A DNA stretch of 64,000 nt, taken from the sequence record OZ346222.1. The stretch is one strand, 5' to 3'. The position numbers and the translations under genes are program-made. Positions 57,853 to 63,985 of this stretch are shown here, piece by piece. Below the pieces are notes generated by a model. The model searched no databases and was not told the DNA's origin. It worked only from the letters and a program-made list of their open reading frames with translations. The first letter of the stretch is position 1. Every line of letters starts with the position of its first letter. This DNA comes from a phage.

Positions 57853-58203
57853 ATGAAAGATGGGGATAAGCTGCTATATCTTAAAGTCCCCCTTGAAATA
57901 CTGTCTATGTCAAAAGTTTTGAATGACACAACTGGTGAGGTTGTTGTTCTTGACTTATATGACAAGATCGTATACTGCTACCTGCACAACTGGTATAAGC
58001 TTGGAGGAAATTCACGCTTCACGCCCAGCACAAGGAAAATTGCAGCAGATATTGGGATAAAGAAAACAAAAGCAGCAGCGTGCGTTAAAACTTTAGAATG
58101 TGCAGGAGTGGTTGAAATATCCACGCAAGGGAGAGGTAAAAGATGCACATTTTCCAAAGTTTTGCCACCAGAAGAAGTTATTCGAATGTCAACAACTGGT
58201 TAG
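57853..58203 (+). CDS. hypothetical protein (116 aa)
   Basis: Track ORF; AAGGAGAA RBS. Confidence 0.55.
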   Translation: MKDGDKLLYLKVPLEILSMSKVLNDTTGEVVVLDLYDKIVYCYLHNWYKLGGNSRFTPSTRKIAADIGIKKTKAAACVKTLECAGVVEISTQGRGKRCTFSKVLPPEEVIRMSTTG

Positions 58204-58278
58204 ACCAGTAAAAACTTAAATATCTGTACTATAAGGATTCGTATGTTTTATGTTCACTCTGGAACAGAGGTTAGTAAC

Positions 58279-58361
58279 TGTCCGTGATACGGACACTACT
58301 GTCCGTCACGCGGACACATCTGTCCGTAATACGGACACTAACTGTCCGTGATACGGACACA
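58279..58361. repeat. tandem array of four palindromic sites (C)TGTCCGT-N4/5-ACGGACA(C)
   Basis: Copies at about 58279, 58299, 58320, 58343; period 20-23 bp. Confidence 0.85.
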
Positions 58362-58499
58362 TAAAGAATATAACTAAAATAACTAAATAATAAAAAAAAT
58401 AAAAGATCTAGTACTTATGGTACTAAGTACATATACTTAACTTATGTAGAATATACTAGATCCTAAGTACCATGTTTTAAATTTATTACTTACTATAGG

Positions 58500-58860
58500 T
58501 AGTGTCGGCCCTTCATTGGCACTCGCCTACGAGGGGGCGAGATGCCGGGCCTCCTTGGTGCACACAATAACAGAAGTGCATACATGAAGGTCTGTTAACA
58601 TGTGTGGGAGCGAAGCGATAGCGCAGGCCAAAGGCCGAGCACTGATGTGGACCACCGACGAAAGCTTGCCAGCGCCGTAAGGAGTCGGTTGAGAGTCTCC
58701 CGCGCGAGCTTGGATGAAGTTTATGTGTGGAAACGGACAAGAAGGCCCCTAAATCGCTCCACAGCTATATAAACTATACCAGGTAAGGCAATCGCACCAG
58801 TTTGATAGAAAAGCTCGTTACAAAGCGATACAGTGAGTTTTTCTATAACTTGAAGAGGAG
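58500..58860 (+). other. GC-rich structured non-coding segment (candidate ncRNA; strand unknown)
   Basis: No rightward ORF; many short inverted repeats (GGCCC...GGGCC, CTCGCC...GGCGAG, TGCAC...GTGCA); GC content visibly above flanks. Confidence 0.3.
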
Positions 58861-58866
58861 GCAGCT

Positions 58867-59445
58867 ATGAGTCCACGCAAAGATGACCGTGAAAAGATTG
58901 CAAAACGTTATCAGAATGAAGAACAGATGGAGAAAACTTTCAAGTGGAAGCCAGGTTTCCAGCGTAATCATTCTAACGCTCGTGATCGTAAGCATCCGGA
59001 TAAGTGGTTAACACCGCCAAATGATGGCATGCAGGTTGGGGATGAGAAGGAGCTGTCACCTGGAAAAGATGGCAACTACATTCGCACTAAGGAAGCAGGT
59101 CCAAAGGATGACAGCTATCTTGTAGATAAGGTTCTTGACGGTGTTGATGTAGGTGTTGACACTGTACGAAACCTTTTTCTTGGTTGGTATCGCACAGGGT
59201 TTTTCGACATCAAGGCTATTCGTCGTGTTTGTGATATTAAAAAGTCTGCCTACGATGATGATTCCCTACATCGCACTCTGAGACAATACTCAGAGAGGTA
59301 CGGTCATCCAGTTATCACTCTTGACGATATTAACGAAGTTATGTATCATGTAGAGGTTGTTGCAGGTAGGTTCGGTGATGCATATCTCGGTATTCTTTCT
59401 GCAAAGGATGAGGTAATGTTAAATAAGATTTACTATGAACGCTGA
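58867..59445 (+). CDS. hypothetical protein (192 aa)
   Basis: Track ORF; GAGGAGG RBS. Confidence 0.6.
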   Translation: MSPRKDDREKIAKRYQNEEQMEKTFKWKPGFQRNHSNARDRKHPDKWLTPPNDGMQVGDEKELSPGKDGNYIRTKEAGPKDDSYLVDKVLDGVDVGVDTVRNLFLGWYRTGFFDIKAIRRVCDIKKSAYDDDSLHRTLRQYSERYGHPVITLDDINEVMYHVEVVAGRFGDAYLGILSAKDEVMLNKIYYER

Positions 59446-59963: not shown

Positions 59964-60251
59964 GGTTGTTTTCGTGTATCATGATGAATATCCAATTTAA
60001 AGATGAATTTGATGGCTTTATCTCCGGATGCTTTGAAACAGGGTTCGGAGAAGGCTGAGTTCCCCTTAGAGGGCTTGATAGTGCACCACACTTAAAATGG
60101 TAGGGGCAGCCAGCACATGACGATGTGACCCCAGCCAACCTGTAATAAGGTCGAGCCAAAGTGCGGTAATGGGCTCTGGTAACCCACTTGTTGGGTCTTG
60201 CTGGTCCAGGACGCTGGACAAGTCGCAGGGAATACCACCCTGCGGCGAACT

Positions 60252-60281
60252 TGACAATCAGTATTTGCTATGATAAAATCC
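60252..60281 (+). promoter_or_regulatory. sigma70-like promoter
   Basis: TTGACA, 17-nt spacer, TAAAAT. Confidence 0.5.
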
Positions 60282-60307
60282 ACCTATCACGTGATAATGG
60301 AGGAAAC

Positions 60308-61211: not shown

Positions 61212-61308
61212 GCTAGGTAAGCCCTTTGGCAAGGGCGAGGATTTTTAATCCTGAAAATAGACGAGGTAGTCGTTGAATACATAGGTGGTTCGATTCCATC
61301 ACCTAGCA
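61212..61308 (+). tRNA. atypical tRNA-like gene (possible anticodon TTT) with about 30-nt extra arm
   Basis: Acceptor GCTAGGT/ACCTAGC, D-arm GCCC/GGGC, 4-bp anticodon stem with loop TTTTTAA, T-arm GGTGG TTCGATT CCATC; no CCA; extra region too long for a canonical tRNA. Confidence 0.35.
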
Positions 61309-61315
61309 CCTTTTT

Positions 61316-62375: not shown

Positions 62376-62659
62376 GAGTTGCTACACTGTTTATTGTGTG
62401 CTTGTTATTATGTGGGTGTGCAACCAGCGTTGAGAGAGAATACAAGATTGACCCTCCTGATGTAGGAAGGTTGATTGTTAAACCCCCGGAAGGTGCCATG
62501 AAACCACCTGCTAAAGCTATGCCTTTGAAGAAAGGTGCGCCAGATGCAGTGAATTCTGGCATTATGAGGGATAATAATCTGTCTTGTAGCAATGATAGAG
62601 CTAAATTGATCATTTTGCAAGACTATATTAGAACACTTTTTCCAAAGGAGAGAGGTTAA
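62372..62659 (+). CDS. o-spanin (Rz1-like) outer-membrane lipoprotein
   Basis: Track ORF; signal peptide with Cys cluster LLLCGCAT (non-canonical lipobox) and proline-rich mature region PPDVGRLIVKPPEGAMKPPAKAMP. Confidence 0.5.
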   Translation: MRVATLFIVCLLLCGCATSVEREYKIDPPDVGRLIVKPPEGAMKPPAKAMPLKKGAPDAVNSGIMRDNNLSCSNDRAKLIILQDYIRTLFPKERG

Positions 62660-63087
62660 TGTCTAAGATTTACGGACCGTGTTCTGAAAAGCAGAAGATG
62701 ATCCTAGAAAACGATGCAGATATTTTGGTAATCGGCGGTGCCGCAGGGTCTGGCAAGTCGTTCCTCTTGCAATTGATGCCACTTAAAATTATTGATGACC
62801 CCCACAGCTCTGTGGTTATGTTCCGAAGAACAACCCCACAGTTGGAAGGTGAGGGTGGATTATGGCCTAAAGCAGTAGCTATTTATAGTGATCTGCCTGA
62901 AAACATTAAGCCAAAGTTTAGAGAGAAGGATCATAAGTTCATTTTTCCACGGTTTGATCCGAACACTGGCAAGTGGGATAGAAGCAAAAAGGGAGCTGTT
63001 GTAAAATACTGCCACATGGAGTATGTACAAGATAAGCTTAACCATCAGGGGCTTGAGTACACCATGGTTTGCTTCGATGAGGGTTAA
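62659..63087 (+). CDS. terminase large subunit, 5' exon (ATPase domain through Walker B)
   Basis: Track ORF; Walker A ILVIGGAAGSGKSFL and Walker B TMVCFDE, frame closes immediately after Walker B where intron sequence begins. Confidence 0.65.
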   Translation: MSKIYGPCSEKQKMILENDADILVIGGAAGSGKSFLLQLMPLKIIDDPHSSVVMFRRTTPQLEGEGGLWPKAVAIYSDLPENIKPKFREKDHKFIFPRFDPNTGKWDRSKKGAVVKYCHMEYVQDKLNHQGLEYTMVCFDEG

Positions 63088-63985
63088 TTTGTAGCTCTCG
63101 TAAAACCTCCCTAATTGCGGGGAAATCTTTATTATTGACACCACCAACCTGTCATGGTAACATGACAGAGGCTTCGAAGAGAGATCGAAGGTATGGTAAC
63201 AGTGTGTTAATTTAGATAATCCGCAGCGAAGCATCCGAGAGGATGAACGTTCAACGACTAGTCGAAAGACGTAGAATCAAGCGATTCGAAACGGGAGGGT
63301 GAATGTGTAATACTAAGAAATGTATGGATTGCCAAAGAGTTCTACCTATTGATGATTTCTTTTTATCATCTAAGAGCAAGGATGGATACTCAGGTACATG
63401 CAAGGAATGCTATATGTACTACAGGAAGGGTGGATCTCGTAAAAACAAAAATATGGTTAAGAGAGATGATGCAGCATTGTTTATTCAAGACTTGCTGAAG
63501 AAAGGTGAACTTTTTGAATGCAAATCTTGTCATGAAAGTATGCTCGCTGATAGTTTTTACACAAAACGTGACTATGGTAAAGTATATCTGGTTACGAACA
63601 GGTGTAAGATGTGTGAAAAGTTTTATCAGATTGAGAAGAAATTTCACATAACAAAAGATGAATACTATCGTCTACTCTCAGATCAAGATCATAAGTGTGC
63701 CATTTGTAGAATATCCCTTGATGAGTATAGGACGCAAGGGTATAGAGATTTCTTTTGTGTTGATCATGACCATAAAACTGGTGCTGTAAGAGGGTTGCTT
63801 TGTGATAAATGCAACAGAGCTTTAGGTTTCTTCCAAGAGGATGAGGAAACTATTCTTAGAGCGGCAGAGTATTTACACATTCATAAGATATAGTCTGGTC
63901 TGCATGGAGACATGCAGCTGCCTGAAAATGGCGGGGCAAGACTAGCGACCTTGCCCGAACATAAACGACACAATTCGAATGGGAG
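63088..63985 (+). mobile_element. group I self-splicing intron with internal homing endonuclease ORF (boundaries approximate, 3' end not resolved)
   Basis: Core elements P AATTGCGGGGAAA (about 63113), Q AATCCGCAGC (about 63218), R GTTCAACGACTAGTC (about 63249), S-like AAGACTAGCGACC (about 63938). Confidence 0.6.
63303..63893 (+). CDS. HNH / endonuclease VII-type homing endonuclease (intron-encoded)
   Basis: Track ORF; GGAGGG RBS; CVDHDHKTGAVRGLLCDKCNRALGFF core motif plus N-terminal Cys-rich zinc-binding segments. Confidence 0.75.
   Translation: MCNTKKCMDCQRVLPIDDFFLSSKSKDGYSGTCKECYMYYRKGGSRKNKNMVKRDDAALFIQDLLKKGELFECKSCHESMLADSFYTKRDYGKVYLVTNRCKMCEKFYQIEKKFHITKDEYYRLLSDQDHKCAICRISLDEYRTQGYRDFFCVDHDHKTGAVRGLLCDKCNRALGFFQEDEETILRAAEYLHIHKI

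Follow-up and report, generated by a model that had tools for sequence, protein, structure and literature searches.

Palindromic array and AT-rich segment

The 64,000-nucleotide (nt) stretch of phage DNA analyzed here (sequence record OZ346222.1; hereafter, the window) belongs to a Vequintavirus, an rV5-like myophage of Escherichia coli. It matches 120 Vequintavirus records and is 99.7% identical to phages rV5_ev147 and slur16 over 3 kb. Downstream of a gene for a winged-helix protein of 116 amino acids (aa), the window contains an array of four palindromes, which is followed by an AT-rich segment and then by a GC-rich structured element (Table 1). The locus looks like an iteron origin of replication, of a familiar kind but in an unusual split architecture.

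A preliminary description, made from the sequence alone, had reported four near-identical palindromes with 7-bp arms around a center of 4 or 5 nt. The palindromes are found where it placed them, at positions 58279 to 58359. A search with up to one mismatch allowed finds four TGTCCG-N5-CGGACA sites in the window, against 0.06 expected from shuffled sequences (0 of 100 shuffles reached four). The description of the centers proved inaccurate. The invariant core is TGTCCG-N5-CGGACA, with arms of 6 to 8 bp and centers of 1 to 5 nt: 7 bp and 3 nt in copies 1 and 4, 6 bp and 5 nt in copy 2, and 8 bp and 1 nt in copy 3. The units recur with a period of 21, 21, and 22 bp, and the direct-repeat unit around the palindromes is 22 nt long (TAACTGTCCGTGATACGGACAC). 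The first repeat starts 76 bp beyond the stop codon of the 116-aa gene, so that the gene does not include any of the iterons. Over the whole rV5 genome (137,947 bp), the motif is confined to the array, located on the opposite strand at 65.15 to 65.23 kb, with no further site at one mismatch or fewer. As the preliminary description had stated, the palindromes are not terminators: positions 58204 to 58866 contain no terminator-like site (a GC-rich hairpin with a U-run) on either strand. A repeat_region without a name marks the array in a few GenBank records. Searches of the literature on TGTCCG iterons and the origin of Vequintavirinae returned nothing relevant besides the rV5 genome paper and no link between Vequintavirus and iterons or an origin.

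The gene upstream and the GC-rich segment downstream are also as previously described, but the array does not adjoin the latter, as the AT-rich segment lies in between. This segment includes two tandem copies of ATAACTAAA, an A-tract, GATC sites at 58405 and 58459, and a 9-bp inverted repeat (GATCTAGTA / TACTAGATC). Its equivalent in rV5 (65021 to 65140) is the 120-nt interval with the lowest GC fraction, 0.20, in the entire genome.

In an alignment of 12 Vequintavirus loci, all of which keep the cassette beside a strongly conserved AT-rich segment, the nucleotide diversity (pi) is 0.011 in the palindrome arms and 0.013 in the AT-rich segment, compared with 0.051 in the central N5 and 0.07 to 0.09 at the third codon positions of two flanking genes. 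Thus, no other DNA in the region is as constrained as the arms and the AT-rich segment. Variation in the arms is about 7 times lower than at synonymous sites, and what is conserved in the AT-rich segment is its sequence and not its composition alone. The number of palindromes shifts in register, from two in phage navn and three in JES2013 and nimi to four in most phages and six in O157 typing phage 14; such in-register change is iteron behavior. Substitutions within the arms of these 12 phages are one-sided, with no compensatory changes. Specifically, the left arm of copy 3 reads TGCCCG in 8 of the 10 genomes that keep this copy, creating a C-A mismatch opposite CGGACA. The 22 bp upstream of the first iteron (58255 to 58276) are hypervariable in the same 12 phages, with a pi of 0.30, far above the neutral level.

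The winged-helix protein

Pfam searches with the 116-aa protein show similarity to HTH_36 (E value of 1.5e-5, at the threshold) and DUF6945 (4.5e-6, just below the threshold). Weak similarity, at E values of up to 0.1, is seen to HTH_CodY, DUF4423, LexA_DNA_bind, and TrmB, with no match to RepA_N (PF06970) or Phage_rep_O at that level. The protein matches PHROG 12838, "replication initiation protein," with an E value of 3e-80 and, more weakly, PHROGs 8102, 428, and 270; via PHROGs, "replication initiation protein" is already its name in RefSeq.

Among solved structures, the sole significant sequence match is to PDB entry 4RO3, with a phmmer E value of 1.8e-6 for the single sequence and 4.2e-17 for the profile of its small family. 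The AlphaFold2 model of the protein has a predicted local distance difference test (pLDDT) score of 81.8 and a predicted template modeling (pTM) score of 0.78. In Foldseek searches with this model, 4RO3 is again the top match (template modeling [TM] score of 0.67, E value of 9e-6), followed by 4PQL, 4PT7, and 5KBJ, and the seven best rows are chains of these four entries. The first of them, 4RO3, is the N-terminal DNA-binding domain of RepA, the RepA_N-type initiator of the Vibrio cholerae satellite PLE; 4PT7 and 5KBJ are N-terminal domains of staphylococcal plasmid RepA, the latter in a Rep-DNA complex (PMC7145576). The entry 4PQL is listed merely as the N-terminal domain of a DNA-binding protein. 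Electrophoretic mobility shift assays and deletion analysis have shown that PLE RepA binds to semi-palindromic iterons in the verified origin of PLE (PMC7145576). The winged-helix domain model covers the 116-aa protein almost end to end. Judging from its sequence and Foldseek matches to the RepA N-terminal domains, the protein appears to be a bare initiator-type winged-helix domain with nothing attached.

Each of the 119 Vequintavirus records that matched contains the 116-aa protein, whose close homologs are found only in Vequintavirus. An exhaustive HMMER search returned 12 matches, adding a few relatives with approximately 30% identity (mainly P0011, P0012, P0015, and P0016). This protein family is small and fast-evolving.

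Two of the distant homologs, P0011 and P0012 (194 to 217 aa), have acidic tails that end in ...DAPF and ...EAPF. We take these ends to resemble the protein-recruiting C-terminal tip of the bacterial single-stranded DNA-binding protein, a possible hint as to how such initiators recruit replication proteins. The distant homolog from phage phiPMW is encoded at a divergent transcription switch, with three copies of GGACAAAATGTCC just upstream of its gene (2337 to 2413 in L255). The half-site of these repeats is the TGTCC/GGACA of the window in the reversed orientation. In Erwinia phage pEp_SNUABM_01, two copies of TCAATTTGAGCA are located upstream of the gene (2364 to 2409 in L256), also at a divergent transcription switch, and the first of them extends to the palindrome TGCTCAATTTGAGCA.

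The product of the next gene, gp73, was considered as the missing effector half of a split initiator, but this idea found no support. It has no family matches, its AlphaFold2 model is unusable (pLDDT of 45.9), and its homolog in another phage, with 51% identity, has neither a small winged-helix gene nor a long noncoding gap directly upstream.

Joint exchange of protein and repeats

A more distant Vequintavirus, represented by the 137-kb IMG/VR contig IMGVR_UViG_3300010279_000001 (referred to here as L269), has the same flanking genes, whose products share 89% (phosphoesterase) and 83% (gp73) aa identity with those of the window. Its winged-helix protein consists of 143 aa and shows 27% identity to that of the window, still recognizable as a homolog (E value of 4e-7). 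At positions 2211 to 2340, the place of the TGTCCG array is taken by different semi-palindromic repeats, four to six in number and of the type ATCTGAT(A/G)CAAATATGTATC, after which come an AT-rich tract and the same GC-rich element. Because the protein and the repeats both differ while the flanks stay, they appear to have been exchanged between the window and L269 as one cassette. The RepA_N domains and origins of the PLEs covary in the same way (PMC8263062). The co-replacement in L269 is the strongest in silico evidence for the predicted binding of the repeats by the protein.

The same motif in unrelated phages

Scans of viral and genome contigs with a single palindrome, CTGTCCG-N5-CGGACAC, gave mostly lone chance matches among the matches listed; a pattern of two adjacent units is informative. 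With 24 specified bases, the latter would not be expected to occur by chance. Two adjacent TGTCCG-N5-CGGACA units are found in 17 IMG/VR contigs that are unrelated to the window, most of them with a GC content of 57 to 70%. The arrays consist of 2 to 7 units at approximately 20 to 25 bp and are found on either strand. In all 10 contigs examined, which represent six distinct array types, the array lies within an open reading frame (ORF) that encodes an N-terminal winged helix, with the repeats in the linker. An AT-richer stretch adjoins the repeats, and most of these ORFs also encode a C-terminal domain. The lambda O gene is organized in the same way (PMC7466680). In the L006-type contig family, the ORF ends soon after the array and is followed by a separate ORF.

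Several of the motif-bearing ORFs match PHROG families annotated as "replication initiation protein" or "O-like," and hhalign shows the N-terminal domains to be homologs of the window protein family (probability of 95%, E value of 3.4e-8). The window locus looks like such an O-like module in which the gene ends just before the iterons. This distribution suggests that one iteron specificity, TGTCCG-N5-CGGACA, is common to the initiators of very different phages.

Comparison with known origins

The origin of phage lambda has four iterons, and those of the Shiga toxin (Stx) phages have six; two iterons and an AT-rich tract are the minimum for unwinding (PMC7466680). As in the window, the ori-lambda/O systems of lambdoid and Stx phages include phased imperfect inverted repeats of approximately 17 to 19 bp, with an AT-rich unwinding segment directly next to them, and the lambda O protein has an N-terminal winged-helix DNA-binding domain. 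The copy numbers, 4 to 6 in lambda and Stx phages and 2 to 6 in Vequintavirus, are also comparable. However, the lambda origin lies inside the initiator gene, between the regions for its two domains, whereas the iterons of the window begin past the stop codon, and lambda O has a C-terminal domain that binds P, the helicase loader, whereas the 116-aa protein ends without one. Further, in contrast to the lambdoids, the window phage is lytic, a large myovirus that encodes a primase-helicase and a polymerase of its own.

Both in sequence and in structure, the window protein is most closely related to the RepA_N initiators, which include PLE RepA and the RepA proteins of the staphylococcal plasmids pSK41/pKS41 and pTZ2162/pTZ6162. 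In their origins, dimers of RepA_N proteins bind direct repeats that are semi-palindromic (PMC7145576), and the RepA_N domain together with its origin forms a swappable module (PMC7145576, PMC8263062), similar to the one that differs between the window and L269. Unlike the window protein, they carry a C-terminal domain that is thought to recruit the replisome. The repeats differ as well: PLE iterons are approximately 30 bp long (PMC7145576), whereas the units of the window are 17 bp long with a mixed center of 3 to 5 nt. Typical RepA_N iterons converge on a poly-A tract (PMC7145576); the unit centers here are GAT, TCACG, or A, not an A-tract. Inverted sub-repeats are present, and the phiPMW homolog has GGACA-AAA-TGTCC.

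The Odn protein of phage ICP1 is, like the window protein, phage encoded and re-uses a RepA_N-like iteron-binding domain (PMC8263062). However, Odn combines this domain with a T5orf172 nuclease domain in one fusion protein and is directed at the origin of a satellite, whereas the window protein has a single domain and its presumed sites are in the genome of its own phage.

Proposed origin and alternative explanations

Positions 57853 to 58492 probably constitute the main early replication origin of the rV5-like phages, an origin of the iteron type in which the initiator consists of the DNA-binding domain only and the iterons are located outside its gene. On the basis of the sequence comparisons and the structural model, we strongly infer that the array is bound by the 116-aa protein; from the analogy with known systems, we infer that unwinding, helicase loading, and origin firing take place at this locus. 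In the proposed mechanism, each 17-bp unit would bind one dimer of the winged-helix protein. The period of 21 to 22 bp corresponds to approximately two helical turns, so that all dimers would be on one face of the DNA, where they might assemble an O-some-like nucleoprotein complex. The strain of this complex would be relieved by the opening of the adjacent AT-rich segment, and the phage primase-helicase (rV5 ORF230) and T7-like polymerase (ORF228) would then load at the opened DNA.

The preliminary description had suggested cooperative binding of a dimeric DNA-binding protein to the palindromes. This suggestion is well supported by the nature of the upstream gene product, a winged-helix protein similar to RepA_N and lambda O, by the constrained arms, and by the co-replacement in L269. 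The AT-rich segment, the homology to initiators, and the likely origin function had gone unrecognized. Isolates of rV5-like phages are widespread, and these phages find use in phage typing as well as in cocktails for therapy and biocontrol; their origin has so far been unmapped. The 640-bp locus, with its small protein, four 17-bp sites, and AT-rich tract, is a precise, testable candidate. If this assignment is correct, it would allow origin-based engineering, such as the construction of ori plasmids that are amplified on infection and of replication-defective mutants.

Several observations weigh against this assignment. The 116-aa protein is missing the C-terminal effector domain that would recruit a helicase or its loader. 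Consensus scans of positions 58100 to 58900 found no DnaA box or IHF site. The palindromic repeats of the phiPMW and Erwinia Henunavirus homologs, just upstream of the gene, are operator-like, and the Odn nuclease of ICP1 is an example of a RepA_N-like DNA-binding domain in a nonreplicative role (PMC8263062). The cumulative GC skew of rV5 has its global minimum at approximately 66.5 kb, 1.3 kb from the array; this is consistent with an origin but is not independent evidence, because the divergent transcription switch lies at the same place. The authors of the rV5 genome paper, who noted a skew change at 66,675 to 66,725, ascribed all such changes to the direction of transcription and could not define an origin (PMC3606486). 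Finally, rV5 (NC_011041.1) contains a second repeat-rich noncoding region, 2.6 kb in length and without ORFs, at 104013 to 106618, and this region may be an additional origin or the actual one.

This second region is located at the convergent end of two transcription units and contains many loose repeats of the CTGTTTAC and AACTAT types. It has no match in Rfam and could represent a terminus, a second origin, or a regulatory region. Several origins are common in large phages.

The most serious alternative, if an unlikely one, is a purely transcriptional role, in which the winged-helix protein would act as a regulator at an operator or roadblock made up of the four sites, controlling either read-through or a phage-specific promoter located in the AT-rich segment, with no part in replication. 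The array lies between short early-type genes (for the ATPase, the phosphoesterase, and the winged-helix protein) and a downstream unit that includes the GC-rich element, gp73, tRNAs, spanins, terminase, and structural genes, and the locus heads the long rV5 transcription unit 27-81, which bears late genes. In many GenBank records the 116-aa protein is labeled "putative transcriptional regulator," and its weak Pfam similarities are to the HTH domains of CodY, LexA, and TrmB. A promoter would be expected to show the sequence conservation seen in the AT-rich segment, and in Henunavirus and phiPMW the palindromic repeats directly precede the start codon and promoter of the homolog itself. However, no sigma-70-like promoter is found in 58204 to 58866 and none is annotated there in rV5, the motif has no copy near the promoter of the 116-aa gene, and the closest structural and sequence relatives of the protein are initiator domains and not repressors. 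The same core motif is also found in the linkers of O-like initiator genes, where it is unlikely to serve as an operator. The two roles are compatible, as iterons often also regulate. There is only a small chance that the locus is a captured or vestigial rep-ori cassette involved in conflicts between mobile elements, where a competing plasmid or satellite would have its Rep protein or origin titrated or blocked, or the reverse. Such a role would agree with the presence of only the DNA-binding half of an initiator, with the exchange between sister phages, with the recruitment of a RepA_N-like domain by ICP1 against its satellite (PMC8263062), and with the neighboring noncoding element, which is common to 13.7-kb phage-like plasmids with their own iterons and O-like Rep. 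These plasmids, however, use different repeats, and a similarity search with the locus in 5,426 complete E. coli genomes revealed no element with TGTCCG-N5-CGGACA iterons. Besides, the cassette is kept in 12 of 12 aligned loci and the protein in every matched Vequintavirus record, which fits a core function.

The preliminary description had also considered four RNA hairpins that form a protein-binding or decoy array. Located in the 3' untranslated region of the winged-helix mRNA, such hairpins might alternatively act as stabilizers. Every unit can indeed form a stem of 6 to 8 bp downstream of a same-strand gene, and the single strand folds far better than shuffled sequences (DNA parameters, z-score of -7.5), although this is trivially expected of palindromes. 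The one-sided substitutions argue against selection for RNA pairing, as does the C-A mismatch of copy 3, which has no compensation. Furthermore, conservation of the arms as primary sequence extends to unrelated phages, where they lie within coding regions and on either strand, and both the phasing of the units and their co-replacement with a DNA-binding protein point to the recognition of double-stranded DNA, leaving the RNA explanation unsupported and very improbable. Least likely of all is a role in packaging, with the array as the pac site that a headful-packaging terminase recognizes. Such sites typically contain repeated protein-binding sites, and rV5 DNA is circularly permuted, which means that a pac site must exist somewhere; also, the assembly MG065672 begins at position 58275 of the window, 4 bp upstream of the first palindrome. 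However, assembly starts are arbitrary and are often found in repeats, the fold of the adjacent protein is of the initiator type and not that of a small terminase, and the array is neither within nor beside the terminase genes, being located approximately 4.3 kb upstream of the gene for the large subunit.

GC-rich element and phage-like plasmids

Two blocks of the GC-rich element (58495 to 58555 and 58645 to 58712) have 84 to 87% identity to DNA that is unannotated in small circular plasmids of E. coli, for example NZ_CP020521.1. The 5' hairpin helix is formed by GGCACTCGCC / GGCGAGATGCC in the phage and by GTCACTCTCC / GGAGAGATGAC in the plasmid, and the 3' helix by ACCGAC / GTCGGT and GCTGCC / GGCAGC, respectively; the changes in both helices are compensatory. 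The loop of the 3' helix, GAAAGCTTGCCAGCGCCG(T/G)AAGGA, is unchanged between phage and plasmid in 23 of its 24 nt. Because these two helices contain five double changes, the element is a real structure, either in RNA or in single-stranded DNA. The covariation is seen only against the plasmid copies: among 9 Vequintaviruses there are zero compensatory pairs, because their divergence is too low.

Rfam searches, at gathering and permissive thresholds, found nothing credible for the GC-rich element or for the array; a match to rli43 was rejected, as its score was 22.8 bits against a threshold of 100. Metagenome searches with an exact 18-mer of the conserved loop produced 111 matches, of which approximately 100 are chance occurrences in GC-rich coding DNA. 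The real matches are in Vequintavirus-like and plasmid-like contigs only.

The element is kept in L269 despite the swapped protein and iterons, and the plasmid copy is also found downstream of iteron-like repeats and a stretch with 26% GC. Thus, judging from co-occurrence only, the element may be part of the origin module. A more elaborate and rather doubtful version of the origin proposal is a split phage origin in which the effector-less RepA_N-like domain and the exchangeable iterons would be complemented by the GC-rich element 130 bp downstream, the latter providing priming or loading as a primer RNA or a single-strand initiation signal. The same element would also serve the phage-like plasmids of 13.7 kb, which may be satellites of rV5-like phages and in which it lies beside iterons and an O-like Rep gene.

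The plasmid NZ_CP020521.1 (13,689 bp, circular) carries its copy of the element at 996 to 1309 (of L265). It encodes major capsid, baseplate, tape measure, and tail-completion proteins, as well as an O-like Rep. Plasmids of this type contain approximately 2.9 kb of noncoding DNA with CGGTAAATATTTCCG-type iterons. Related plasmids include NZ_CP043822.1, NZ_CP178698.1, and NZ_CP035869.1, and related metagenome contigs are L295 and L315. These plasmids could be miniature phage-plasmids or satellites, possibly tied to the rV5-like phages via the shared element.

Gene layout and other features of the window

The features around the array are listed in Table 1 in their order on the plus strand.

Table 1. 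Positions of the array, the adjacent segments, and the neighboring genes in the window
Feature	Position	Strand	Description
Divergent transcription switch	~56750		First feature in plus-strand order around the array
AAA_33 kinase-like ATPase, then metallophosphoesterase	Between the switch and the 116-aa gene	+	
116-aa winged-helix gene (rV5 ORF79/gp075)	57853..58203	+	Stop codon 58201-58203
Noncoding stretch 3' of the 116-aa gene	58204..58866		663 bp; holds the array and the AT-rich and GC-rich segments
Iteron 1	58279..58295	None	TGTCCGTGATACGGACA
Iteron 2	58300..58316	None	TGTCCGTCACGCGGACA
Iteron 3	58321..58337	None	TGTCCGTAATACGGACA; left arm TGCCCG in most relatives
Iteron 4	58343..58359	None	TGTCCGTGATACGGACA; copy adjoining the AT-rich segment
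AT-rich segment	58362..58492	None	Proposed DNA-unwinding element; 130 bp, 22-25% GC
GC-rich structured element	~58495..58760	+	52-60% GC; RNA fold z-score of -2.07 on the plus strand
gp73	58867..59445	+	Followed by small ORFs
Seven tRNA-like genes, spanins, large terminase	Downstream of gp73 and the small ORFs		

Another noncoding stretch, at 60000 to 60300, also has a raised GC content (52 to 59%) and is located upstream of an ORF74 homolog and the tRNA cluster. No similarity was found between this stretch and the first GC-rich element; it could be another structured RNA. A 99-nt tRNA-like gene (61212 to 61310) is predicted by ARAGORN to have a four-base anticodon (atcc), with the amino acid left undetermined. 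It scores 35.5 bits against the Rfam tRNA model, is annotated as "tRNA-???" in slur16, and is unannotated in rV5.

A set of 18 GenBank records titled "Campylobacter phage" (MG0656xx) share 97 to 98% identity with the E. coli rV5-like phages, and their host labels look doubtful. MG065672, the assembly that starts at position 58275, belongs to this set.

At 62659 to 63893, the reading frame of the large terminase ends after 142 aa, and the next ORF encodes a Cys/His-rich protein similar to HNH endonucleases. The terminase coding sequence of rV5 is annotated as three joined pieces, with an HNH endonuclease gene within their span.

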